DNA of 64,000 bases from an uncultured Acidimicrobiia bacterium. Lineage in GTDB: Bacteria > Actinomycetota > Acidimicrobiia > Acidimicrobiales > JACDCH01. A model generated the notes under the pieces. It worked only from the letters and a program-made list of their open reading frames with translations. It made no database searches and was not told the DNA's origin. The position numbers and the translations under genes are program-made. The first letter of the stretch is position 1, and every line of letters begins with the position of its first letter. Location: NCBI GenBank assembly GCA_963721305.1, contig CAVRIR010000002.1, positions 420,067 through 484,066 of the forward strand, given 5' to 3'. Of this stretch, positions 7,962 to 55,368 are shown one piece after another.

Positions 7962-9458
7962 CTACTGGAGGGTGCGGCGGAGGACCTTGCCCGTGGTGCC
8001 GACGGGGATCTCGTCGACGAACATGATCTTCTCGGGGCACTTGTACCGGGCGAGGCGTTCGGCGCAGAACGCGATCAGGTCGTCCTCCTCGACTGACGTC
8101 CCGTGCGCCACGACCACGTAGGCCTTCACCGCCTCGCCCGTGTACGGATGGGGCACGCCGATCACGCCGCACGCCTCGACGGCAGGATGCTCGAGCAACA
8201 CGTTCTCGACCTCGGCCGGGAACACGTTGAACCCGGACACGATGATCAGGTCCTTCACGCGGTCGACGAGGAACAGTTGGCCGTCGTCATCGACCACGGC
8301 GACATCGCCCGTGCGCAGCCAGCCATCGCCGCCGAGCGCCGCGGCCGTGGCGGCGTCGTCGTGCCAGTAGCCCGTGAACACGTTCGGTCCCGACACCCAG
8401 ATCTCGCCCGGATCGCCGATGAGAACGTCCTCGCCGTCGGAGTCGACGAGTCGCACGTGCACGCCCGGCAACGGCGCACCGATCGACCCGGGCTTCTCGT
8501 GGTCGCCGGCCGATGTCGTGACGACGGGCGATGCCTCGGTGAGTCCGTATCCCTCGGTGATCGTCACTGCGAACCGCTGCGCGAACGTCCCGCGCACCGA
8601 CAACGGCAGCTTCGCCGCGCCCGAGGCCGCGATGCGGACGGATGCGAACGCGTCGTCGGGAACGTCGGTGAGCGACGACCACGCCGTCCACATCGCCGGC
8701 GCGCCGGGGACGATCGTGACGCCGTGCCGTTGCACCGCTTCGAGCGCGGACGTCGGATCGAAGCGCTCGATGAGCACGACCCGTGATCCCGCGTACAGCG
8801 AGAGTCCCAGCACGACGTTGAGCCCGAAGATGTGGAACAGCGGGAGCACACCGAGGCTCACGTCGTCCGCGGTCTGCACGCGCAAGGGGTTCGCCTGCAT
8901 CTGCTCGATGTTCGAACGCAAGTTGCCGTGCGTGAGCATCGCCGCCTTCGGGAAGCCAGCGGTTCCGCTCGTGAACATGAGGACGGCAAGGTCGTCGTCA
9001 TCGCGTTCGACGATCGGCGCGGTCGCTCCTGTCGCGAGGAGGTCGTCGAGCATGACGCGTCCTGGCACGTCGACGTCCTGCGTGACGATGCAATGTTCGA
9101 GGTCGGGGAGCTTGTCTCGATCGAGCCGCGGCAACTGCGCCAGCACCGACGGACCCGCGACGATCGCACGTGCACCGACTGAGCCGAGCTCGGACTCCAG
9201 CTCGCGCGCCGGGCTCGTGGGGTTGAGCGGTACCGCAACGAGTCCCGCGCCGAGCGCGGCGAGGTAGGAGACGACGAAGTACCAGTTCGTACCGCACACG
9301 ATGCCGATGCGGTCGCCCTGTTGGAGGCCGAGTCCGGCTAGTCCAGCGCGGAGCGCGGCCGCCTGTTCACGCAACATCCCGTATGTGGTGGTGCGACCGC
9401 GGCTCACGAGTGCCACCGCGTCGTCGGGATGCGGATCGAGCACGGTGGCGAGGTTCAC
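7962..9458 (-). CDS. Long-chain acyl-CoA ligase (AMP-binding)
   Basis: FTSGTAGFPKAA, EGYGLTE, WLRTGD, DRVKDLII. Confidence 0.93.
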   Translation of the reverse strand: MNLATVLDPHPDDAVALVSRGRTTTYGMLREQAAALRAGLAGLGLQQGDRIGIVCGTNWYFVVSYLAALGAGLVAVPLNPTSPARELESELGSVGARAIVAGPSVLAQLPRLDRDKLPDLEHCIVTQDVDVPGRVMLDDLLATGATAPIVERDDDDLAVLMFTSGTAGFPKAAMLTHGNLRSNIEQMQANPLRVQTADDVSLGVLPLFHIFGLNVVLGLSLYAGSRVVLIERFDPTSALEAVQRHGVTIVPGAPAMWTAWSSLTDVPDDAFASVRIAASGAAKLPLSVRGTFAQRFAVTITEGYGLTEASPVVTTSAGDHEKPGSIGAPLPGVHVRLVDSDGEDVLIGDPGEIWVSGPNVFTGYWHDDAATAAALGGDGWLRTGDVAVVDDDGQLFLVDRVKDLIIVSGFNVFPAEVENVLLEHPAVEACGVIGVPHPYTGEAVKAYVVVAHGTSVEEDDLIAFCAERLARYKCPEKIMFVDEIPVGTTGKVLRRTLQ

Positions 9459-9613
9459 AGCGCGTCCTTCCGGGCGGTCACACGGGTTCCAACCGTCAAG
9501 GTGTCGAACGGGCAGGCCGATACTTCCCGCGAGATCGACGAGCGGGCAACCCGGCCGTCGGTATGCCGATCCTGGAGGGAACCCAACGGCGCTGCAGAGG
9601 TCAAACTGTCACC

Positions 9614-10583
<970 letters not shown>

Positions 10584-16352: not shown

Positions 16353-16727
16353 ATGCGGATTCTGACCCGGGTGGCGGCCGCGGCCGCCCTGATCTCGTTC
16401 CCTCTGGCGGCATGCGGCGGAGGATCGTCGACGCCGAGCTCGTTGAGCGGCGCGGACGTGACGGTTCACGCCAAGGACACGTTGAAGTTCGACAAGAGCG
16501 AGTACACGGTCAAAGCGGGCGACGTGAAGATCGGTTACGTCAACGACGGCAACATCCCGCACACGCTGCAGATCGACGGGCAGCCGCAGTTCGCCAAGAT
16601 CTCGCTGAACAGCCATGGCCAGAGTCAGATCGGCGAGGCGAACCTGGCGCCGGGCACGTACCAGATCTACTGCGACATCCCGGGCCACCGCGCCGCTGGG
16701 ATGCAAGCCGATCTCGTCGTCCAGTAG
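16353..16727 (+). CDS. Cupredoxin (plastocyanin/azurin-like) lipoprotein
   Basis: Lipobox LAAC; type-1 Cu ligands H...C-x4-H-x4-M (YCDIPGHRAAGM). Confidence 0.9.
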   Translation: MRILTRVAAAAALISFPLAACGGGSSTPSSLSGADVTVHAKDTLKFDKSEYTVKAGDVKIGYVNDGNIPHTLQIDGQPQFAKISLNSHGQSQIGEANLAPGTYQIYCDIPGHRAAGMQADLVVQ

Positions 16728-44644: not shown

Positions 44645-45091
44645 ATGCCAGCTGATCTCGATGCGGTCCGCAGGCTCGGCGCTGCGGATCATGGTCTCGT
44701 CGTCGTGTCGGTGGCGCGACCCGACGGCTCGGTGAACACGTCAGTCGTGAACGCGGGAGTGCTGCCCGATCCTGTGACTGGTGAAGACGTCGTCGGGTTC
44801 GTGGCGCGTGGCGACGCCCGCAAGCTCGACTACGTCAGAACGACTCGGCGCGCGACCGTGACGTTCCGCTCGGGTTGGCAGTGGGTCGCGGTCGAGGGTC
44901 CGGCACGCCTCGCGGGACCGGACGACGACCTACCCGGCCTGTCGCCTGACCGGATCCCGGCACTGTTGCGCGACGTGTTCATAGCCGCCGGCGGCACCCA
45001 CCATGACTGGGACGAGTACGACCGCGTCATGGCCGCGGAGCGCCGCACCGCCGTCCTCGTCTCCAATGTTGGATGGAAACGGGCGCGATAG
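44645..45091 (+). CDS. PPOX-class F420-dependent oxidoreductase
   Basis: SVVNAG, WQWVAVEG, AAGGTHHDWDEYDRVM. Confidence 0.88.
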   Translation: MPADLDAVRRLGAADHGLVVVSVARPDGSVNTSVVNAGVLPDPVTGEDVVGFVARGDARKLDYVRTTRRATVTFRSGWQWVAVEGPARLAGPDDDLPGLSPDRIPALLRDVFIAAGGTHHDWDEYDRVMAAERRTAVLVSNVGWKRAR

Positions 45092-45112
45092 CGCCCGTTT
45101 CCATCCAACATT
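45065..45112. repeat. Perfect 22-bp inverted repeat hairpin
   Basis: AATGTTGGATGGAAACGGGCGC-GATA-GCGCCCGTTTCCATCCAACATT. Confidence 0.9.
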
Positions 45113-45140: not shown

Positions 45141-46061
45141 CTACGGGACCCCGCCGGGTTCGGTGGGAGCGGGGCCGTGGCGGGCGAGCTCGTCGAGCTC
45201 GTCGCGCACCGAATCCCACGTGAGGACGTCGCGTTCGGTGACGACGACGCCAGCGCGCTCCGCTTCCATGTGCCGGCTCGACCACTTGAAGAACAGGACC
45301 ATGATCAGGCCCCATATGTAGAACGCCTCGCCGAGCTTCATCATCACGCCGGCGATCTGCTGGTCCGTGACCGGGTTGATTCCCCACAGGTGAAACGGCC
45401 GGTTGTACGCGTGGTACACGGGCTGCTCGGCGAAGATGAGCCACGCCGACGGGATGGTCGGGATGATCGTCTGCACGAACAGGTAGAGCATCTGCCCGGG
45501 CAAGGACAACCGCATCTCAGGAAGCGGCCCGCACACCGGCATCCACATCAGCAGCGCGGTCGCAACGAGCATGACGTGAAGGCTGAAGTGCAACGGCGCC
45601 GACGTGACCGACGCGTTGACCACGACGGGCCAGTGGACGAACGCGAACGCCGCGTTGAACAGCACGGCGGCCGGCACCGGTCGGCACAGCCGCCGTATGA
45701 CGTTGCCCGCGAACCATCCGTCGCCGACGACGAGCCGCGCCAGCCACGTCGGTATCGCGAGCAGGAACAGCGGCGGCACCACCATGGTCAGCAGCAGGTG
45801 CTGGGCCATGTGCACCGAGTACAGGTATCGCTCGCCGATGTCGTGCATCGGCCAGTCGGCCGCGATCCACATCGTTGCGATCGCGAGGACGAACCAACCT
45901 TTCTGGCGACGGGTCACGATCGGCGAGCCGTCTCGCACGACCTTGGGTCCGATGACCGTCGTTGCGTACCACCAGCAGCCGATGATCCCCGCCATCAGCA
46001 ACCACACCTCGGGGTGGGCTCGGAACCTCCAGGGATCCACGGCGCCGATCACGTCAACCAC
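45141..46061 (-). CDS. ctaG: Cytochrome c oxidase assembly protein (caa3 CtaG-type)
   Basis: HMAQHLLL, FVHWP, DQQIAGVMMK. Confidence 0.88.
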   Translation of the reverse strand: MVDVIGAVDPWRFRAHPEVWLLMAGIIGCWWYATTVIGPKVVRDGSPIVTRRQKGWFVLAIATMWIAADWPMHDIGERYLYSVHMAQHLLLTMVVPPLFLLAIPTWLARLVVGDGWFAGNVIRRLCRPVPAAVLFNAAFAFVHWPVVVNASVTSAPLHFSLHVMLVATALLMWMPVCGPLPEMRLSLPGQMLYLFVQTIIPTIPSAWLIFAEQPVYHAYNRPFHLWGINPVTDQQIAGVMMKLGEAFYIWGLIMVLFFKWSSRHMEAERAGVVVTERDVLTWDSVRDELDELARHGPAPTEPGGVP

Positions 46062-46075
46062 ACGCGGCGCCGGGC

Positions 46076-46411
46076 TCAGCTACCGCTGAACACGTGGAAC
46101 ATCAGCAGCACCACCGTGTACACGATCACGGCGAGCAGGATCCCGGTGACGAACAACCATCGGAACACCCGGGAGTCGAACCGCAGGTGCATGAAGAACA
46201 TGGCGACCGTGGCGAACTTGATCACCATCGCCACGATCAGGATGATCGCGTACGGCAGGAAGTTGATGTCGAGGTAGTAGAGGGCGACCTCCGCGCCGGT
46301 GACGAGCGCCAAGAATAGTGCGACCAGCACGTACTCCATGTCGCCCGGGTGCGCATGCTCGTGTTCGTCATGCGGCGTCTCGGTCGTCGTTACCTCGGTC
46401 GACGAAGCCAT
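46076..46411 (-). CDS. Cytochrome c oxidase subunit IV family protein
   Basis: LVTGAEV, KFATVAMFFMHLRFD. Confidence 0.88.
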   Translation of the reverse strand: MASSTEVTTTETPHDEHEHAHPGDMEYVLVALFLALVTGAEVALYYLDINFLPYAIILIVAMVIKFATVAMFFMHLRFDSRVFRWLFVTGILLAVIVYTVVLLMFHVFSGS

Positions 46412-46430: not shown

Positions 46431-47069
46431 TCACGGGATCAGATAGACGACGGTGAAGATGACGATCCACACCACGTCGACGAAGTGCCAGTACAAGCCG
46501 ACGATCTCGACGACCTCTGACCGTTCCTGGGGCAGCTTCCCTCGCAAGGACATCACGAACAGCGACATGAGCATGAGGATGCCGACGCTCACGTGGACGC
46601 CGTGGAAGCCGGTCAGCGTGTAGAAGGAGGACGACGCCGTGTTGGTCGTGTAGCCCATGCCTTCCTTGACGAATGACGTGAACTCGTAGATCTGGCCCGA
46701 GATGAACGTTGCGCCGAGCAGCGCCGTGGTCACCAGCCAGACGCGGCACCGATGGTGATCACCGCGTTGCAACGCGGACAGCGCGAGCACCATCGTCATC
46801 GAGCTCATCAGCAGCACGAACGACGACACCGACGTGAACGGGATGTCGTAGAGATTGTGCGGAATCGGACCCTGCACCGCGGTTCGCTTGTACAGCAGGT
46901 AGGTCGAGATGAGACCGCCGAACAGCAGGCACTCCGATCCGAGGAACACCCACATGCCGAGCTTCTGGTTCGAGACCCCGGTCTGGGTCCAACCGTGCTC
47001 ACCCGGCTTGGGCTCGTGGTGTCCGAGCTGCTGTTGTCCGACGGGTGCCGTGTGTTCGACCGCGGTCAT
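46431..47069 (-). CDS. ctaE: Cytochrome c oxidase subunit III
   Basis: GMWVFLGSE, TGFHGVHV, YWHFVDVVW. Confidence 0.95.
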   Translation of the reverse strand: MTAVEHTAPVGQQQLGHHEPKPGEHGWTQTGVSNQKLGMWVFLGSECLLFGGLISTYLLYKRTAVQGPIPHNLYDIPFTSVSSFVLLMSSMTMVLALSALQRGDHHRCRVWLVTTALLGATFISGQIYEFTSFVKEGMGYTTNTASSSFYTLTGFHGVHVSVGILMLMSLFVMSLRGKLPQERSEVVEIVGLYWHFVDVVWIVIFTVVYLIP

Positions 47070-49111
47070 GCGGGCGCCACCTCCTCCTGCTCCTCCGCGG
47101 CGTCCTCGGCCGCCGGCAGCTCGGCCTGCGCGCCATCGCCGTCGCCGTCACCGGCCTCGAGCTCGTGATGGCCGTCGCCGCCGTGATCCGCGTCGGGATC
47201 GACGGACGGCTCGAAGGCCAAGCCGTAGACCGCGAGGAGCAGCGCGAATCCACCCACGAACGCGAGCGCCAAGTTGAAGATGATGCCGTAGGCGATGACC
47301 GGCAGCGAGGCGGCCAGCACGATCGGCCAGTAGCTCGGCGACGGAAGGTGCACGCCCGTCGGATCACCAGCCTGGACGACGTCGTCCGTCGCGGCGATGC
47401 GCACCGGCCGGCCGGCCTCGTCCTCGCCGTACTTGCGGTGCCAGAACTCGTCGAGATGCGTCACGATCGGCACTTCGTCGAAGTTGTGCGATGGCGTCGG
47501 CGACTGGACCATCCACTCGAGACCTCGTGCGTCCCACGGGTCCGCGCCCACGACGATGTTGTTCTGCTTCGCCTTTCGCCGGCTGTACCAGATGTTGATC
47601 AGGAAGATCAGCACCGCCGTCGCGATCACGAATGCGCCGATCGTCTCGATCATGTTCCAGACGTCGTAGCCGTAGCCCTTCTGGTACGTGTACGTGCGGC
47701 GGGGCTGACCCTCGAGGCCGATGATGTGCATCGGCCCGAACGTGAGGTTCATCCCGATGAGGATCAACCAGAAGTGCCAGCTACCGAGCCGCTCGGACAA
47801 CTGGTACCCGAAGACCTTCGGCCACCAGAAGTACATGCCACCGAAGAAGCCGAGGATCGCGCCGCCGAAGATGACGTAGTGGAAGTGGGCGACGATGTAG
47901 TAGGTGTCCGTCTGCTGCAGGTCGGACGGTGACACCGCGTGCGTGACGCCCGACAGCCCGCCGATGGTGAACATGGCGACGAGCCCGATGGCGAACTTCA
48001 TCGGCGTCGGGAACGTCAACTTGCCGCCGTACATCGTCGCGATCCAGTTGAGGATCTTCACGCCCGTCGGCACGGCGATGAACATCGTGGTGACCGAGAA
48101 AGCGGCGACCGAGAACGGGCCGATACCGGAGGCGAACATGTGGTGCGCCCAGACGCCCCACCCCATGAAGCCGATCGCGATGCCCGAGAACACCATGAAC
48201 GGGTAGCCGAAGATCGGCTTGCGGGAGAACACCGGGATGATCTCGGAGACCACCCCGAAGGCGGGCAAGATGAGGATGTAGACCTCTGGGTGCCCGAATA
48301 TCCAGAACAGGTTTTGCCACAGCAGCGGGTCGGCGCCTTGTTGGACCTCGAAGAAGTTCGCTCCGAAGCGACGGTCGAACAGGAGCAGGAACAGCGCCAC
48401 CGTGATGACCGGCATGGCGAACACGATGAGCAGCTGCGTCACGAAGGCCATCCAGGTGAACACCGGCATCTTGAACAACGACATGCCGGGCGCACGCAGG
48501 TTGATGACCGTGACGACCAGGTTGATCGCGCCGACTGTCGAGGCGATACCGGTGATCAGCAGGCCGAGGGCGTAGAAGTCCATGCCGTGCGTCGGCGAGA
48601 AGATCGGGTTCGTGTTCGGTGCGTACGCGAACCAGCCACCGTCCGGGGCACCGCCGAGGAACCACGACGAGTTCAGGAAGAGTCCACCGAACAGGAAGGC
48701 CCAGAAGCTGAATGCGTTCAGCCGCGGGAAGGCCACATCGCGCGCGCCGACCTGCAACGGCATGATGTAGTTCATCAGCGATGCACCGAGCGGCATCACG
48801 ACGAGGAAGATCATCGTGATGCCGTGCATGGTGAACACCTGGTTGTACTGCGCGGCGTTGAGCACCGTGCCGTTCGCGTGCGCGAGCTGAAGGCGGATCA
48901 GCAACGCCTCGATGCCGCCGATGAGGAAGAAGAAGATGGCGGCCGCGCCGTACATGACGCCGATGCGCTTGTGGTCGACGGACGTGACCCAGCCGCGCCA
49001 TCCCTTGGACTGTCCTGGACGCGCGAAGACGCCCAGCGCGGGACGCGTGGAGCCGGTGTCGCCGCTCGGTAGGGCGAGCGGGCCCGTTTGGGGAGCTTCG
49101 ATGATTGCCAT
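47066..49111 (-). CDS. ctaD: Cytochrome c oxidase subunit I (A1 type)
   Basis: TMHG, GHPEVY, WAHH, AHFH, PRR; extra C-terminal SYWP helices. Confidence 0.98.
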   Translation of the reverse strand: MAIIEAPQTGPLALPSGDTGSTRPALGVFARPGQSKGWRGWVTSVDHKRIGVMYGAAAIFFFLIGGIEALLIRLQLAHANGTVLNAAQYNQVFTMHGITMIFLVVMPLGASLMNYIMPLQVGARDVAFPRLNAFSFWAFLFGGLFLNSSWFLGGAPDGGWFAYAPNTNPIFSPTHGMDFYALGLLITGIASTVGAINLVVTVINLRAPGMSLFKMPVFTWMAFVTQLLIVFAMPVITVALFLLLFDRRFGANFFEVQQGADPLLWQNLFWIFGHPEVYILILPAFGVVSEIIPVFSRKPIFGYPFMVFSGIAIGFMGWGVWAHHMFASGIGPFSVAAFSVTTMFIAVPTGVKILNWIATMYGGKLTFPTPMKFAIGLVAMFTIGGLSGVTHAVSPSDLQQTDTYYIVAHFHYVIFGGAILGFFGGMYFWWPKVFGYQLSERLGSWHFWLILIGMNLTFGPMHIIGLEGQPRRTYTYQKGYGYDVWNMIETIGAFVIATAVLIFLINIWYSRRKAKQNNIVVGADPWDARGLEWMVQSPTPSHNFDEVPIVTHLDEFWHRKYGEDEAGRPVRIAATDDVVQAGDPTGVHLPSPSYWPIVLAASLPVIAYGIIFNLALAFVGGFALLLAVYGLAFEPSVDPDADHGGDGHHELEAGDGDGDGAQAELPAAEDAAEEQEEVAPA

Positions 49112-49118
49112 CACAACC

Positions 49119-50231
49119 TCATGGCGAAGACGGTGGAGTGACGCCGGCGGGGTACGGGCCGAGCGTCTCGAGATAGGCGACGAGCTGGTCGATGTCGTTC
49201 TCACTCAATTGCAGGTTCGGCATCCCGCGGCCTCCCGCGGGCGCCATCGGAAGTAAGCCGGGTGGATCGCGCAGCCACGCTTCGAGCTGGTTGCGGTTGA
49301 AGACGATGTTGCCGTTCGCGTCCTTGACGTAGAGCGGGAAATTCCCACTCGCGAACACGGACCGGCTCATCAAGTGAGTGAGGTTCGGCGCCACCTTCGA
49401 CACCAGAGGTGCCTCTGCGACCTCGTTGACGCCATTGATCTGGTGACAAGCGGCGCACTTCGCCTGGAAGGTGGTGAGTCCAGCGGCTGCCTGCGAGCCG
49501 GCGGGCGGTGTCGCTGCGTTCTGTTCTTGCTGGCTCACCCATGTGTTGAAGTCGTCCTGGGTCATCACGACGGCCCGTGCGCGCATGTTGGCGTGCGACA
49601 GGCCGCAGAACTCCTTGCACTGCCCGTCGAAGACGCCGGTTTGATCCGCGGTGACCTCGAGCGTCTGAATGCGTCCCGGCACGGCGTCGCGGGTGCCGTT
49701 CAGCGCGGGGATCCAGAAGCTGTGGATCACGTCGCGCGACTGGACCTCGAGCTCGACGGGCTTGCCGACGGGGATCACCAACTCGTTGGCGGTGATGATC
49801 TCCGGCTTGCCGTCGCCGTTGAAGTCGTATTGGTAGGCCCACCACCACTGCTGGCCGAACACCTCGATCTTCATCGCGTTCGCCGGCCTGCGGCTGATCT
49901 GCACCACGGTCACGACGGTGAAGAACGCGACGACGGCGAGGATGAGGAACGGCACGACCGTCCAACCGATCTCGATCCGAGTGTTGCCGTGGATCTGCTT
50001 CGGCTCGTCTTCATCGGATCGACGGCGACGCCCCGTGATCATCACGAACAGCAACATCGCGGCGACGATGACGCCGACGACGCCGGCGGCGATGAACACC
50101 GGCACCTGCAGCCGGTTGATCTTCTCGGCGTTGGTTCCCTTGGGATTGAAGATCGTTTGCGGGGTCGAGCACGACGCGAGCACGAGCATCACGACGGCGG
50201 CGACAGCGAGACGACGGGCGGCGCGCATCAA
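49119..50231 (-). CDS. ctaC: Cytochrome c oxidase subunit II with fused cytochrome c (caa3 type)
   Basis: DVIHSFW, CuA motif CKEFCGLSHANM, CAACH heme c motif, lipobox LASC. Confidence 0.96.
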   Translation of the reverse strand: MMRAARRLAVAAVVMLVLASCSTPQTIFNPKGTNAEKINRLQVPVFIAAGVVGVIVAAMLLFVMITGRRRRSDEDEPKQIHGNTRIEIGWTVVPFLILAVVAFFTVVTVVQISRRPANAMKIEVFGQQWWWAYQYDFNGDGKPEIITANELVIPVGKPVELEVQSRDVIHSFWIPALNGTRDAVPGRIQTLEVTADQTGVFDGQCKEFCGLSHANMRARAVVMTQDDFNTWVSQQEQNAATPPAGSQAAAGLTTFQAKCAACHQINGVNEVAEAPLVSKVAPNLTHLMSRSVFASGNFPLYVKDANGNIVFNRNQLEAWLRDPPGLLPMAPAGGRGMPNLQLSENDIDQLVAYLETLGPYPAGVTPPSSP

Positions 50232-51053
50232 CTACTCCGGAAGGGAAGTCGGCGTGGGCTGGTTGCGATCGGCGGGCGCGAACGGGTTCTCGTTGTGCTC
50301 CTTGTCGTAGTTCCGTGAGCCTTGCGCGGCCGAGATGATTCCGCCCGTGATCACGCCCAAGGCGATGACGATGCACACGACCGCGGTGACCGTTCGCACG
50401 GCACGCGGTGCGAGCGCGAGCACGGTGGCAACTGCGAGCACCAGCACGGCGAAGCCGAGGGCGACCGCGGCGGAAGCGTGGTCGCTCACTGCGAGCAACA
50501 CGCGCGAGATGCAGAAGATCATGGCGACGACGCCGATGGCCCCGAACACCGGGATCTCGACCGGGTTCATCAGGCGGTTGCGGATTCGCCGGTTGGCCAC
50601 CGGATCACCGGTGGCGCGATCGGACCATGCCGACACCATCCACTCGAGCAGCACGACGATGCCGACCAGGATCCCGAAGACGAAGAGTTGTGCGCTCACC
50701 ACGAGACCGACCGCACAACACCCGGCGGCGACAGCCCCGAGCACGGGCCAGTAGCTGTTCGTGCGGGGTTCGCGGACCTCGGGCAACGTGTCGAGGCCGA
50801 TGAACGACTGCACCGCGTCGGCGTCGGCGTCGCGGAACGCGACCGCCAGACCGCCGAGGAAGGCGGCGGACGCGGCCGCGCTGAGCAGGACGATGTACCC
50901 GGCATGATCGCCGACGCCGCCGTAGAGGCCGAACGTGATCACGCCACTCAGTCCGCCGTGGTTGCCCCACGCGAAGATGGCGGCACCGAAGAGGGCGAGC
51001 GCGGCGAGACCGAAGAAGAACTTTGCGCCCGTCGTGACCATGGTCGTCTTCAT
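50232..51053 (-). CDS. Membrane protein with an SYWP two-helix module (CtaF-like accessory subunit candidate)
   Basis: About 7 TM; NSYWPVLGA..VLLEW; ATGA coupled to the upstream gene. Confidence 0.7.
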   Translation of the reverse strand: MKTTMVTTGAKFFFGLAALALFGAAIFAWGNHGGLSGVITFGLYGGVGDHAGYIVLLSAAASAAFLGGLAVAFRDADADAVQSFIGLDTLPEVREPRTNSYWPVLGAVAAGCCAVGLVVSAQLFVFGILVGIVVLLEWMVSAWSDRATGDPVANRRIRNRLMNPVEIPVFGAIGVVAMIFCISRVLLAVSDHASAAVALGFAVLVLAVATVLALAPRAVRTVTAVVCIVIALGVITGGIISAAQGSRNYDKEHNENPFAPADRNQPTPTSLPE

Positions 51054-51655
51054 TTGGTGACGAAGATCGTGAACCAGATCGCCGCGAAGACAGCCACGGT
51101 GACGTACCAATAGAACGCAGCAGCGAGGACTCCCTCACGATCGCGGCCGGAGTACTCGCCGCCGAGCGCGCGGAACGCCATCAGTCCGAGGAAGATCATG
51201 CCGGCACCCGCCATCGCGAGATGCATGCCCGTGATGGTGAAGATCAGCAGGCCGACGCGGTCGTGCACCGTGATGCCCATCTGCGTGTAGTTGAAGGCCA
51301 TGCCGTTGATGTAGGCGGCGCCGAGGAGAATTGTGAGCCCGAGCGCGAGATAGGCGCGCGGTCGGTCGTTGGTCGCGATCGAATACACCGCCCACTGGAC
51401 GATGACGACGGAGATCACGAGACCGACCATCGCGACGTTGCCCGGTGTGAGATCGATCGTCACACCCTTCGGCAGCCACGGTTGGTTCGACTCGAGCACC
51501 TGGGCTCGCAGCCCGACGTAGATGCCGATCACACCGGCGAACGCCATCACGATCGCCGCCAGCGCGAAACCCGTGCCGAACAGCAACACGCGCGGCCGTT
51601 GCGGGGGCGCCGGCGGCGGCGTGCCGATCGAGTCGTCGGCCAGGACGAGCGTCAT
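51050..51655 (-). CDS. Divergent cytochrome c oxidase subunit III paralog
   Basis: ITGMH, AFYWY; conserved Glu/His/Asp positions replaced. Confidence 0.8.
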   Translation of the reverse strand: MTLVLADDSIGTPPPAPPQRPRVLLFGTGFALAAIVMAFAGVIGIYVGLRAQVLESNQPWLPKGVTIDLTPGNVAMVGLVISVVIVQWAVYSIATNDRPRAYLALGLTILLGAAYINGMAFNYTQMGITVHDRVGLLIFTITGMHLAMAGAGMIFLGLMAFRALGGEYSGRDREGVLAAAFYWYVTVAVFAAIWFTIFVTK

Positions 51656-53247
51656 GCCCCGCTCCCTTCGGACGCTTCCTTGGCGTCGAGCACCGGCGTC
51701 GGCGACCCGACCACGACGGCGACCGGATCGGCGGCCCACTCGAGGGTCTGGCCGTCCCACGGATCGACGGGAACGTCGTCGGACTGCGAAGCCAGCGACA
51801 TCGCGAGGTTGACGATGAAGATCACGACTGCGAGCGCCACGACCGCACCGCCGACGAACGACACGACGTTGAGCGCTTGGACACCGTCGCGCACTTGGCC
51901 CAGCGAGCCGCGGGGCTCGTCGAGCAGACCCGAGATGAGATCGGGAAGCGCGAGGGCGAACACGCCGAGAAGAAGCAACAGCGCGGTGACTCGCCCGAGA
52001 CCTTCACGCATCGGCCTGCTGAGCACCTGCGGCCACCAGTAATGGATGCCGCCGACGGCCGCGATGGCGACAGCACCGAGTGAGTAGTGCGCGATGGAGG
52101 CGTCCGCGACCGTGCCGACGAGGTCGAGCGAATGGATCGCGCGGATCGCCGACACGATCACGCCCGCGAACAGCATCAACACGGCCGCGATGCCGAACAG
52201 CAGTGGGCTGCCGAGCTTCGGCCGTCCGTGCCTGAGCGTGTCGGCGACGTAGCCGAAGAAGACGAGCAGCGGCAGTACGAGCAGGAATGCAGACGTCACG
52301 AACAGGAACTGGCGCTCGACCTGCTGGTTGTCGACCGCGGCCAGGTACGTCCAGGCGCCGAAGGACAGCGCCGCGAACGCGCCGATGGCGGCCATGGCGA
52401 CCCCACCTCGGCGGGCCCGGATCCGGCTGAACACGGGCACGACGTCACCGGCGAAGCCGAGGACCGGCACCGCCCACGCGAACACCTGCGGTGGCGTCAT
52501 CGTCCATCGCAGCCACCGATCGATGTCCGTGCTCGCGCCGAACGCGAACAGGCGGTACCGATGGTCGAGGTACAGCAGGACCAGGATCCCGAAGAAGAGG
52601 CCGAGGCTGGCGATCCAGATCGTCGCACCCACGAGCACCGACCAAGCGAACATCGGGACGCGAGCGAGGCTGAGCCCTGTCGTCCGCAAGCCCATCACGG
52701 TGGTCGCGAGGCACACCGATGCGAGCACCAGCGCGACGACCACCATGCCGAGCGAGACCAGGAACAGGTCGACGCCCTTCTGGTTGCCGCCGAACGGTCC
52801 GCCGTTGATCAGGTAGCTGACGACGACCATGCCGCCACCGATCAGGTACACCCAGAAGGCCGCGGCCGCCGCGCGCGGGAACGCGATCGACTCGGCGCCG
52901 ACCTGCGCCGGCACGACACAGGTGGCGAGCCCGATGAGGATCGGGATGGCGAACAGGAACAGCGCGCCGACGCCGTGCAACGACAGCGTCTGCGCGTAGT
53001 TGTCCTGGTTGAGGATGTTGTAGGTGTCGGTCTGGAAGCGCTCGGCGCCGAGCACGCCTCCGAGCACACCGGTCAGCACCAGGAACACGACCGACGTACC
53101 GATCCACAGGCGCCCGATGACGGCGTACCGGCCCGTGCCGAGGAGCCCGGCGAGGCCGCCCGCGGGGACGGCGTCGTCGGTTGGGCGGTCGTCTACCGCC
53201 GCGGCAGGTTCGGGCGTGGCCTCGGGCCGAGTCTCGGTCATCGCCAT
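51652..53247 (-). CDS. Divergent heme-copper oxidase subunit I paralog lacking the binuclear-centre ligands
   Basis: QVGAESIAFPR, VPVFSR, YWWP, DPWDGQTLEW collinear with CtaD. Confidence 0.88.
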   Translation of the reverse strand: MAMTETRPEATPEPAAAVDDRPTDDAVPAGGLAGLLGTGRYAVIGRLWIGTSVVFLVLTGVLGGVLGAERFQTDTYNILNQDNYAQTLSLHGVGALFLFAIPILIGLATCVVPAQVGAESIAFPRAAAAAFWVYLIGGGMVVVSYLINGGPFGGNQKGVDLFLVSLGMVVVALVLASVCLATTVMGLRTTGLSLARVPMFAWSVLVGATIWIASLGLFFGILVLLYLDHRYRLFAFGASTDIDRWLRWTMTPPQVFAWAVPVLGFAGDVVPVFSRIRARRGGVAMAAIGAFAALSFGAWTYLAAVDNQQVERQFLFVTSAFLLVLPLLVFFGYVADTLRHGRPKLGSPLLFGIAAVLMLFAGVIVSAIRAIHSLDLVGTVADASIAHYSLGAVAIAAVGGIHYWWPQVLSRPMREGLGRVTALLLLLGVFALALPDLISGLLDEPRGSLGQVRDGVQALNVVSFVGGAVVALAVVIFIVNLAMSLASQSDDVPVDPWDGQTLEWAADPVAVVVGSPTPVLDAKEASEGSGA

Positions 53248-53335: not shown

Positions 53336-54232
53336 TCAGAGCCCCGAACGCAGCAACTGGTCGACGGCGATCGCGCCGAAGAGCAAGGTCACGTACGTGA
53401 TCGACCACGAGAACAGCCGCATCGCGTCCTTGGGTGTGCACCGGCGCAAGAGCTGCACGGCGAACCCCGTGAACACGGCGCCGAGGACGATCGCCGAACC
53501 CGTGTAGAGGTCACCCATCCCCGCCACCGGACCGAACAACAGGGTGAGCGCCCAGAGGAGCAGCGTGTAGAGCAGGATCCGTACCGCCGTCGTCCGCGCG
53601 CTCGCGACCACGGGGAGCATCGGCACCTCAGCGGCCGCGTAGTCGTCGCGGTAGCGGATGGCGAGCGCCCAGAAGTGCGGTGGCGTCCAGTAGAAGATCA
53701 CTGCGAACAGCACGATCGGCGCCCATGCGAGCCGGTCGGTCACCGCGGTCCATCCGATGAGCACCGGTACGGCGCCGGCCGCGCCGCCGATCACGATGTT
53801 GTGCGTTGACGTCCGCTTCAACCAGATGGTGTAGACGAAGACGTAGAAGAGCGTGGCGCTGACGGCCAGCACTGCGGAGAGCAGGTTGACCGTCGACCAG
53901 AGGAAGGCGAAGGCCACGACCTCGAGCGCGATCGCGAAGATCAGCGCGTTGCGGGGCTTGATCTGTCCGGTGACGAGCGGTCGGCTCTTGGTCCGCTTCA
54001 TCAGGCGGTCGATGTCGCGATCGACGTACATGTTGATCGCGTTGGCACCACCGGCCGCGAGCGTGCCGCCGAACACCGTTGCGACCATCAGCCAGATCGA
54101 GGGAAGTCCCTGAGCCGCCACGATCATCGTCGGCACCGTTGTGACCAGTAGCAGCTCGATGATCCGAGGCTTGGTGAGCGCAACATACGCACCAAGGCGC
54201 GAACGAACAGGAAGTCGGACCGACTGGTGCAT
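53336..54232 (-). CDS. ctaB: Heme o synthase (protoheme IX farnesyltransferase)
   Basis: LTKPRIIELLL, DRDIDRLMKRTKSRP, WTPPHFWAL. Confidence 0.96.
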   Translation of the reverse strand: MHQSVRLPVRSRLGAYVALTKPRIIELLLVTTVPTMIVAAQGLPSIWLMVATVFGGTLAAGGANAINMYVDRDIDRLMKRTKSRPLVTGQIKPRNALIFAIALEVVAFAFLWSTVNLLSAVLAVSATLFYVFVYTIWLKRTSTHNIVIGGAAGAVPVLIGWTAVTDRLAWAPIVLFAVIFYWTPPHFWALAIRYRDDYAAAEVPMLPVVASARTTAVRILLYTLLLWALTLLFGPVAGMGDLYTGSAIVLGAVFTGFAVQLLRRCTPKDAMRLFSWSITYVTLLFGAIAVDQLLRSGL

Positions 54233-54422
54233 GTGAACAAACACACTATGTCCGCGCGCACCCCTGCGGCCAAGCCACCGGTGCACCAAATTCGGGCGTC
54301 GGCGAGCAACCGAGAACGAGGTCGGTTCGACCAGTTTCGAGGTGAACGCGGAGTTTCTGCGCGAGGGGCGTGCCGGCAGCGCGTCTGACCGCGAGCAGTC
54401 GTGGGCCGTAGCCTCGCGAGAA

Positions 54423-55368
54423 GTGCCGTCCGTCCCGCTGTCCGCAGCTCAGACCGGAGACCTACCGCCGAATCACCTTGTTCGCCCTGGTCGCGTTGGG
54501 ACTGATCGTGGTGACCGGGGGTGCAGTTCGCTTGACCGGCTCGGGACTGGGCTGTCCGGAATGGCCGAACTGCGACACCGGGCACCTGAGCCCACATGGC
54601 CAGACCGGCTACCACGGCGCGGTCGAGTTCCTGAACCGGCTCTTCACCGGCGCGGTCTCGTTCGCCGTGATCATCGCCGTACTGGGGTCGTTCTGGCGGG
54701 TGCCGCGGCGACGCGACCTCATGTGGCTGTCGTTCGGGCTCGTGCTCGGTGTCCTCGCGCAGATCGTGCTGGGCGGCCTCACCGTGCTCTACGCACTGAC
54801 ACCGCCATGGGTGATGGCCCACTTCCTCCTGTCGATGGTGCTGCTCGCTGACGCAGTCGTCCTCAACGTCCGCGCCGGTCGTGCCGACGGTCCTGTCCAC
54901 CCGGTGGTGACGCGCTCGGTGCGGGTCATGAGTTGGATCGTCACCGCGTGCACGGCCGCGGTGCTCGTCACCGGAACCATCGTGACGGGCGCGGGCCCGC
55001 ACGGCGGTGACGAGAACGTCAAGCGGCTCGGCCTGTCTGTCACCACGGCGGCGCGCATCCACGGCATCACCGAGAACGTGTTGCTCGTCACGGTGCTCGT
55101 GACGCTCGCGCTGATCGTGCGCACCGCGGCACCTGCTGTCGTGCGACGCGACGCGAACGTCCTCCTCGTCGTCCTGATCGCGCAGGCCGGGGTCGGTTAC
55201 GCGCAGTACTTCAACGGCGTGCCAGTGGTGCTGGTGGGAATCCACATCTTCGGTGCCGTGTGCGTCTGGGTCGCGGCCCTCCGGCTCGCTCTCGGCATGC
55301 AACAGCCCGCAGCCGTGGTAACTACACGAACAGTGATGGCGCGCGAGTCCGTGCTGGCGGCGAGCTGA
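54423..55368 (+). CDS. ctaA: Heme A synthase (COX15/CtaA); start uncertain, probable frameshift near 54440
   Basis: [35 protein letters not shown]. Confidence 0.9.

Follow-up and report, generated by a model that had tools for sequence, protein, structure and literature searches.

A subunit I paralogue inside a caa3 oxidase operon

The 64,000-nucleotide stretch of DNA analysed here (the window throughout) comes from an uncultured bacterium of the class Acidimicrobiia, order Acidimicrobiales (contig CAVRIR010000002.1, positions 420,067 to 484,066), and carries on its reverse strand the operon of a caa3-type cytochrome c oxidase. Between ctaB and ctaC this operon encodes three further proteins: D', a paralogue of oxidase subunit I; E', a subunit III-like protein; and X, a membrane protein (Table 1). 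The original prediction, made from the sequence alone, had three intact open reading frames (ORFs) between ctaB and ctaC, and the span it gave them (50232-53247) is exactly that of D', E' and X.

The genes are start/stop-coupled. As read from the sequence, the D' stop TGA (51654-51652) is overlapped by the E' ATG (51655-51653) and the E' stop (51052-51050) by the X ATG (51053-51051), each as ATGA. The X stop TAG (50234-50232) is followed directly by the ctaC start, either TTG at 50231 or ATG at 50228, and the ctaB stop (53336) and the D' ATG are 88 nt apart. A 236-aa ORF for E' starting at 51760 was rejected as an over-extension, the true start lying at the ATGA overlap (201 aa), and a 292-aa ORF for X with a TTG start was set aside for the 273-aa ATG ORF. 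Why does an operon with a complete oxidase carry a second subunit I?

D' has lost the metal ligands and proton channels and keeps the fold

D' belongs to the heme-copper oxidase (HCO) superfamily, matching PF00115 with 184.3 bits (cut-off 34.8), while the real CtaD scores 517 bits. Against the curated equivalog TIGR02891 (CtaD_CoxA) it reaches 228.1 bits, far under the cut-off of 670.75. With the neighbouring CtaD it shares 28% identity (E 2e-53) and is collinear over 553 columns by BLASTP, with which the MAFFT columns agree. Both methods bear out the losses first read from the sequence at the binuclear centre, the D-channel Asp, the K-channel Lys and the GWxxY loop. In D' the three CuB His are replaced by P, Y and L (GHPEVY to TPPQVF, WAHH to WTYL), the Glu of HPEVY by Q, the cross-linked Tyr by F and the heme a3 His by I. 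The D-channel Asp has become S (ARDVAFPR to AESIAFPR) and the K-channel Lys F, and the D-channel Asn and K-channel Thr are likewise gone. The GGW..YAP loop, which carries the Trp between CuA and heme a, has lost 13 residues. In the real CtaD every checked residue is kept wherever the row aligned.

These losses extend through the order. Near homologues of D' (107 of 120 listed proteins, 500-600 aa long; the 13 others were dropped for length) have T, S or A and F, I, L or V at the D- and K-channel positions. Across 18 D' copies of the order (the window copy and 17 others), the Trp loop is deleted in all 18. The window copy retains two of the six ligand His, H91 and H387; order-wide, none of the six remains in 11 of the 18 copies and at most one in 12. 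The retention of one Arg of the PRR motif, also proposed from the sequence, is true of the window but not of its relatives, the propionate Arg pair being R in 34/107 and 17/107 of the near homologues.

What has been kept is the scaffold. The AlphaFold2 model of D', built from a 56-row alignment, has twelve long helices, with a predicted local distance difference test score (pLDDT) of 90.1 and a predicted template modelling score (pTM) of 0.90; its best Foldseek matches are the CtaD proteins of C. glutamicum and M. smegmatis (TM 0.84). At least 85% conservation is found at 53 positions of the 18 copies, mostly Gly, Pro, Trp and Arg common to real CtaD, for example the AFPR Arg (18/18), R188, G191, W202, P253, W404 and DPW..LEW, and little of the conservation is peculiar to the shadow copies, as we call D' and its equivalents. 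Conservation is highest in helices I-V and loops 2-3, 3-4 and 4-5 (mean top-residue frequency 0.56-0.76), loops 2-3 and 4-5 being cytoplasmic. It is lowest in the periplasmic loops and in helices VII, VIII and X (0.43-0.48 versus 0.82-0.88 in real CtaD). The half of D' that meets subunit III is thus kept, while the active-site half is free to drift.

The two remaining histidines

Could D' still hold a heme? H91 occupies the position of a low-spin heme a ligand (TMHG to SLHG), and H387 is the only His of helix X. In three MAFFT alignments H387 falls on the second His of AHFHY, a heme a ligand; in BLASTP and a further MAFFT run it falls on the first, which is the heme a3 ligand. Since H387 lies 8 residues past the conserved Thr that opens helix X, the same spacing as for the heme a ligand in real CtaD, we favour the heme a position. 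The claim that D' keeps exactly the two low-spin His therefore stands for the window, with two alignments dissenting, but not for the order, where both are present in 5/18 copies, one in 1/18 and neither in 12/18. Near homologues resemble the window (95 with both, nine with neither and three with one), and both are kept in 3 of 17 further ligand-poor copies.

The flanks of the lost positions align clearly (Q..SL-x and GT.......x...YW.PK), and the residues replacing the two His order-wide are D, S, V, R, A, Y and Q. On the near-homologue tree each His changes three times, and two of three independent pairs change together, a number too small to be informative (p 0.5). Because the pair occurs in separated branches of the shadow tree, it looks ancestral and repeatedly lost. 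With the pair in 5 of 18 copies, the shared role of the family cannot need a bis-His heme, and the proposal that the protein binds one heme fails as a general statement; the D' of the window clade, judged by its residues, may bind one low-spin heme.

A slower-evolving shadow copy (L074:2893-4590, + strand) sits at the same operon position and is 32% identical to real CtaD. It keeps both low-spin His, and Y, S, E and T take the place of its CuB and heme a3 ligands; from these residues, it may represent an intermediate stage.

E' and the chimeric protein X

E' matches PF00510 with 39.2 bits, above the cut-off of 23.8, and its only NCBIfam match is NF050119 (aa3_CtaE_Actin) with 59.8 bits, below the cut-off of 190. 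X has about seven hydrophobic stretches by eye. Its residues 1 to ~140 resemble actinobacterial CtaF (Cyt_c_ox_IV): the X profile matches the solved CtaF chains 7q21_F (E 3e-5, 131 of 143 residues), 9wcx_m (3.1e-4), 6adq_H (8.8e-4) and 8hcr_H (1.9e-3). PF12270 gives 18.2 bits on X against a cut-off of 26.9 and sub-threshold matches in 5/10 orthologues. Passages of a review (PMC8361435) describe M. smegmatis CtaE and CtaF as together making up the canonical subunit III, with CtaF supplying helices 1-2, and as mediating the contact with complex III (III2-IV contacts). By homology, E' and the first half of X would correspond to such a split subunit III.

The second half of X has another source. 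Residues ~146-273 are homologous to the membrane anchor, an Arg-rich motif plus three helices, of a family of blue-copper proteins that we call Y (hhalign 99.2%, E 3.6e-19, 153 columns). The accessory protein of the original prediction is thus confirmed as the third gene of the module, but it is a CtaF-like piece fused to a blue-copper anchor and not an unknown. About half of the X orthologues are longer (340-410 aa) and end in a cupredoxin-like domain, recognized by Pfam Cupredoxin_1 in 3/11; none of the four Cu ligands His/Cys/His/Met is kept in the aligned columns of the long X proteins (0/11 copies), and the X of the window has no cupredoxin domain. On its own the X tail shows no significant match to the Y cupredoxin (hhalign, 0.35%). 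Its position, the Cupredoxin_1 matches in 3/11 and the full-length alignment nonetheless suggest that it is a degenerate Y domain. A relic of subunit II was considered for X and rejected, as hhalign found nothing between X and CtaC (0.5%) or between the cupredoxin-like tail and CtaC (0.1%).

Proteins of family Y were recognized when the X profile was run on other orders, where 16 of 208 genomes matched only at positions ~140-260. Each is ~250 aa long and combines a cytoplasmic Arg-rich motif with three helices and a cupredoxin on the periplasmic side. In 12 of 13 the aligned columns hold the type-1 Cu ligands His/Cys/His/Met, and the 13th is misaligned but has a C..H..M string. Most Y matches compared or read lie a few kb downstream of a caa3 ctaD, and in two loci read (L127 and L128) directly behind ctaG; Y may be an electron donor of the caa3 oxidase. 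In the source genome the Y anchor is found only inside X. The window also encodes, at ~16353-16727 (+ strand), a small lipoprotein-like cupredoxin with an LAAC lipobox and four type-1 Cu ligands, which matches the cupredoxin domain of Y with E 1.1e-28.

Predicted assembly of D', E' and X

A complex of D' (residues 31-531), E' and X was predicted in three runs, each protein with its alignment and X as the scored partner. The score was 0.81 in all three, while the best of three controls reached 0.00; the mark applied is reached by 58/80 solved complexes and by 2/110 mismatched pairs. At least 75% of contacts are shared between runs, and the partner pLDDT is at least 63. In the model, X 7-153 contacts helices III/IV and loops 118-126 and 185-195 of D', and residues 14-52 of E'; the two D' loops are its conserved cytoplasmic loops. 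Of the multimer check suggested with the original prediction, the part on the trio without CtaCDE gives a pass, a result that supports binding but does not show it. The model supports an assembly in which the CtaF-like half of X would be wedged between D' helices III/IV and E'.

Distribution, synteny and selection

A word-indexed protein search with D' detected 609 proteins at E<=1e-20, named as proteins of Acidimicrobiaceae or of Acidimicrobiales metagenome-assembled genomes (MAGs). The order ctaB-D'-E'-X-ctaC-ctaD-ctaE-ctaF is found in all 17 same-order operons fetched, followed by ctaG in 14; in one (L028) X is split by a frameshift, and in another (L029) the real ctaD was read as two ORFs that overlap. 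Across the order, ORFs are intact at identities of 29-77%. A scan of species representatives gave 80 loci, 17 of them with two or fewer of the six ligand His. The flanks were viewed for 14 of these 17, leaving ctaF unread: nine have the full ctaB-D'-E'-X-ctaC-ctaD-ctaE order, three are consistent with it up to contig ends, one is the L074 copy in the same place, and one (L096) is a separate operon from Solirubrobacterales. The module also occurs in three very divergent genomes of the order, where D' identity falls to 23-25%. No locus examined has the module anywhere but between ctaB and ctaC.

Profile scores of D' could not be used for a census, real CtaDs scoring 270-313 bits and shadow copies down to ~330; three high-scoring matches from other orders proved to be ordinary CtaDs on reading the loci. 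Because these scores failed to separate the two, X was taken as the marker. Among the 92 same-order genomes with a completeness of 90% or more, 72 have a full-length X, and the X family comprises 320 representative clusters at E<=1e-30. We also considered ctaB as an ancestral partner of the module, but ctaB stands alone in 5/5 other-order genomes and offers no clue.

Ratios of nonsynonymous to synonymous substitution rates (dN/dS, NG86 method) were computed against two genomes. With a congener they are 0.21 for D', 0.18 for E' and 0.27 for X, compared with 0.20 for ctaC and 0.11 for ctaD. With a genome of the same family they are 0.37, 0.30 and 0.44, compared with 0.29 and 0.19, synonymous sites being near saturation. 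The view that the three genes are a selected set and not in simple decay is upheld by the synteny in 17/17 operons, the intact ORFs and the dN/dS of ~0.2: homologues are present order-wide under purifying selection. In a 39-row tree, made by a quick method, unrooted and with long branches flagged, the 18 shadow copies form one clade (100*) whose branching roughly mirrors that of real CtaD and whose terminal branches exceed those of real CtaD 2.5- to 7-fold in length. D' lies at equal distance from the neighbouring caa3 CtaD (150.8 bits) and the second, aa3-type CtaD of the genome (148.2 bits); given this equidistance and the unrooted tree, no donor of the module can be named.

A structural partner of the oxidase?

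With its metal-binding and proton-channel residues lost, D' is probably a structural partner and not an enzyme. We propose that D'-E'-X is a cofactor-stripped pseudo-oxidase and a structural partner of the caa3 oxidase, a reading that we believe and doubt in equal measure. The D'-E'-X subcomplex would neither reduce O2 nor move protons and would bind no heme in most lineages. Sharing a transcript with the caa3 oxidase, it would be a stoichiometric scaffold or structural partner of that oxidase, with the anchor half of X as its likely link to the active enzyme. Such a tether is plausible, since sister orders have this anchor on a copper protein that the caa3 operon encodes. Among the roles first suggested for D' (electron wire, heme A chaperone, sensor or silent half of an asymmetric dimer), the evidence leans to a structural partner. 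A broader version is clearly more doubtful, and we offer it tentatively: the caa3 oxidase may be an obligate pseudo-heterodimer, its live CtaCDEF half tethered via X to a cofactor-less I'/III' half that shapes stability, lipid environment or docking to the bcc complex, and dead HCO modules may have arisen repeatedly as a class of respiratory pseudoenzymes, at least twice in Actinomycetota.

Several observations weigh against a structural partnership. Contact via the X anchor is something that we purely infer, and X residues 154-273 have no confident placement in the model. As solved CtaD-CtaE-CtaF complexes exist, the score of the model may reflect likeness to them. The degeneration of helices VII-X and the periplasmic face of D' makes a canonical contact with subunit II unlikely. 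No X match was found in 20 of the 92 good same-order genomes; by family, X is present in 0/16 genomes of f22, 0/2 of f26 and 0/1 each of f30, f63 and f65, and in all but one of the 35 of f7. For two f22 loci the stretch read shows an aa3-type ctaC-ctaD alone, with neither caa3 operon nor module. Genomes from other orders of the class (7/7) carry ctaC-ctaD-ctaE-(ctaF)-ctaG and lack the module, so the module is not needed for basic assembly. In one congener (G001; locus L160, G001:C21:133000-146500), D' (~8321-9871) lies in three reading frames with two frameshifts, while ctaB, E', X, ctaC, ctaD, ctaE, ctaF and ctaG are each in one frame; D' may be dispensable there, or the assembly is wrong. 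A broken D' in a further genome (G012) was not counted, as many genes of that genome are frame-broken.

What else might the module do? It could be an assembly scaffold or chaperone that transiently holds CtaC, CtaE, copper or heme A (from CtaB/CtaA) and is absent from the finished caa3 oxidase. This would suit a module that adjoins ctaB, with a divergent ctaA upstream and ctaG in the same operon, and the dead oxidase of Solirubrobacterales (see below) also adjoins ctaA/ctaB; in the window clade, the His pair could hold heme a. Yet ctaB beside an oxidase operon is a common arrangement, as in Bacillus, and active Solirubrobacterales orthologues have the same ctaA/ctaB neighbours. With the His pair gone in 12/18 copies, heme hand-off cannot be the shared role, and the start/stop coupling of D', E', X and ctaC fits stoichiometric subunits at least as well, which leaves the scaffold reading unlikely. 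Less probable again, in our view, is a D' that in the window lineage holds a single low-spin heme, with H91 and H387 as its ligands, and works as an electron wire, a store or a redox sensor. Both His in 95/107 listed near homologues, the joint changes in two of three independent pairs and a fold that is intact in the model speak for it; these stand against the pair's presence in 5/18 order-wide and 3/17 further copies, the deletion of the Trp loop in 18/18, the unkept propionate Arg pair, a co-loss count too small to use and the BLASTP and MAFFT alignments that put H387 on the heme a3 position.

The fast evolution of D' and the loss of every redox site would also be expected of a stand-alone membrane function outside respiration, such as transport or signalling, with the operon position a matter of history. 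But the module never leaves the ctaB-ctaC position in the loci examined, no X was found in the 16 f22 genomes, two of whose loci were read and hold only the aa3-type genes, both proton channels are filled with hydrophobic residues and conservation peculiar to the shadow copies is confined to few residues; we consider such a function slightly more improbable than the single heme. Far less credible than any of these is decay, with the genes as duplicates on the way to becoming broken pseudogenes. The loss of all catalytic residues, the two frameshifts of D' in the congener and the split X of L028 speak for it, but decay is contradicted by ORFs intact over order-level divergence (29-77% identity), a dN/dS of ~0.2, kept motifs (the AFPR Arg in 18/18 and DPW..LEW) and the size of the X family.

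A second dead oxidase in Solirubrobacterales

The separate operon L096, from a MAG labelled Solirubrobacterales, reads ctaC'-ctaD'-ctaA-ctaB and encodes a subunit I with 0/6 ligand His. From a sample of 61 Solirubrobacterales genomes the best 14 loci were fetched, and 12 genomes among them have a subunit I with zero or one ligand His (Table 1). Two unpublished genomes in the sample carry no part of the argument. In subunit II of these 12, both CuA Cys are replaced by Ser (in one by Pro/Asn) and the second His by Tyr or Phe. The two most distant fetched loci (L153 and L154, 41-42% identical) share this gene order and retain all ligands. The Solirubrobacterales dead oxidase is of independent origin: there the orthologue died, and not an extra copy.

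Comparison with known systems

D' resembles the A-family CtaD/CoxA proteins (PDB 7QHM, 6ADQ and 6HWH; Thermus caa3, 2YEV) in its 12-helix fold, collinearity, AFPR, LR..G and DPW..LEW motifs and Foldseek TM of 0.81-0.84, and differs from them in its lost ligands, channels and GGW loop and its TIGR02891 score below the cut-off. E' is a five-helix COX3 member like actinobacterial CtaE, and the first half of X matches solved CtaF and is modelled in a like place, between D' and E'; unlike CtaF, X has three further helices, and both E' and X fall below the curated cut-offs. With the Y proteins, X ~146-273 shares the Arg-rich motif and three helices, and the long X proteins have their cupredoxin-like domain in the same place, but with 0/11 retaining the Cu ligands that align in 12/13 Y proteins.

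Non-catalytic paralogues kept as structural subunits of energy-converting complexes are familiar from the core proteins of bc1 and the alpha subunit of F1; there, too, a dead copy of a catalytic subunit is kept under selection beside a live one. Our full-text searches, in a collection short of most subscription journals, found no description of a dead HCO structural paralogue or of this module, though an earlier mention in a supplementary table or thesis is possible.

The nitric oxide reductase (NOR)-type families (cNOR, qNOR, eNOR, sNOR, gNOR, nNOR and bNOR) belong to the same superfamily as D' and also lack the active-site Tyr. According to passages of Murali et al. (PMC11214002), they keep their His ligands, with both heme ligands and a non-heme metal site of three His (or two His plus Asp). 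D' comes from the A family and has P, Y, L and I in the ligand columns in the window. As far as those passages go, the possibility raised with the original prediction that D' is an already characterised NOR variant is set aside: D' is not NOR-type, and those families keep their His ligands.

HCOs are defined and classified by their metal centres; here, a subunit I without ligands and without both channels is kept order-wide. Retained with its own subunit III parts and the relic of a copper protein, D' suggests that the oxidase scaffold has a use beyond catalysis. In Acidimicrobiia and Solirubrobacterales, oxidase counts taken from the annotation "cytochrome c oxidase subunit I" come out too high. 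The presence of a cultured member of the order, Iamia, among the matches makes the question testable. Ilumatobacter is another genus that we take to be a cultured member of Acidimicrobiales.

Neighbouring genes and related loci

The remaining genes of the operon, its surroundings and the related loci are collected in Table 1.

Table 1. The D'-E'-X module, its operon in the window and related loci in other genomes
Feature	Position	Strand	Details
D', subunit I paralogue	51652..53247	-	531 aa; PF00115 and alignment to neighbouring CtaD
E', subunit III-like	51050..51655	-	201 aa, five helices; PF00510
X, membrane protein	50232..51053	-	273 aa; CtaF-like half and Y-anchor half
ctaB, heme O synthase	53336..54289	-	first operon gene; NF003349, 409 bits
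ctaC, subunit II with fused cytochrome c domain (caa3 type)	49119..50231	-	CuA ligands kept
Real ctaD	47066..49111	-	681 aa from MAIIE; six ligand His, Glu, Tyr, Asp and Lys all kept
Real ctaE, subunit III	46431..47069	-	Pfam/NCBIfam family matches
ctaF (COX4_pro type)	46076..46411	-	Pfam/NCBIfam family matches
ctaG, caa3-type assembly factor	45141..46061	-	last operon gene
Perfect 20-bp palindromic hairpin	45065..45112	none	just past the ctaG end, before the next genes
ctaA, heme A synthase	54478..55368	+	upstream of ctaB, divergent
Dead-oxidase loci, Solirubrobacterales	L096, L140-L152		genomes G238, G283, G248, G288, G298, G253, G273, G293, G278, G242, G258, G263
Y example	L128:3975-4712	-	alignment A6
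Y example	L163:1323-2084	+	alignment A6
Further Y examples	11 more loci		alignment A6

The hairpin likely marks the end of the operon as a two-way terminator. The C-terminus of the real CtaD (47066-47330, - strand) is extended by two fused helices, which match Cyt_c_ox_IV positions 76-127 with 27.6-31.3 bits and are the counterparts, on subunit I, of helices 1-2 of subunit III. Besides D' and the caa3 CtaD, the source genome encodes a third COX1 protein, a second CtaD on another contig. The latter lies in a classical actinobacterial cluster (contig C5, ~950-956 kb) of ctaD, ctaF (PF12270, 37.7 bits), qcrB (652 bits) and ctaE, and the organism thus has a bcc-aa3 type oxidase in addition to the caa3 oxidase with the shadow module.

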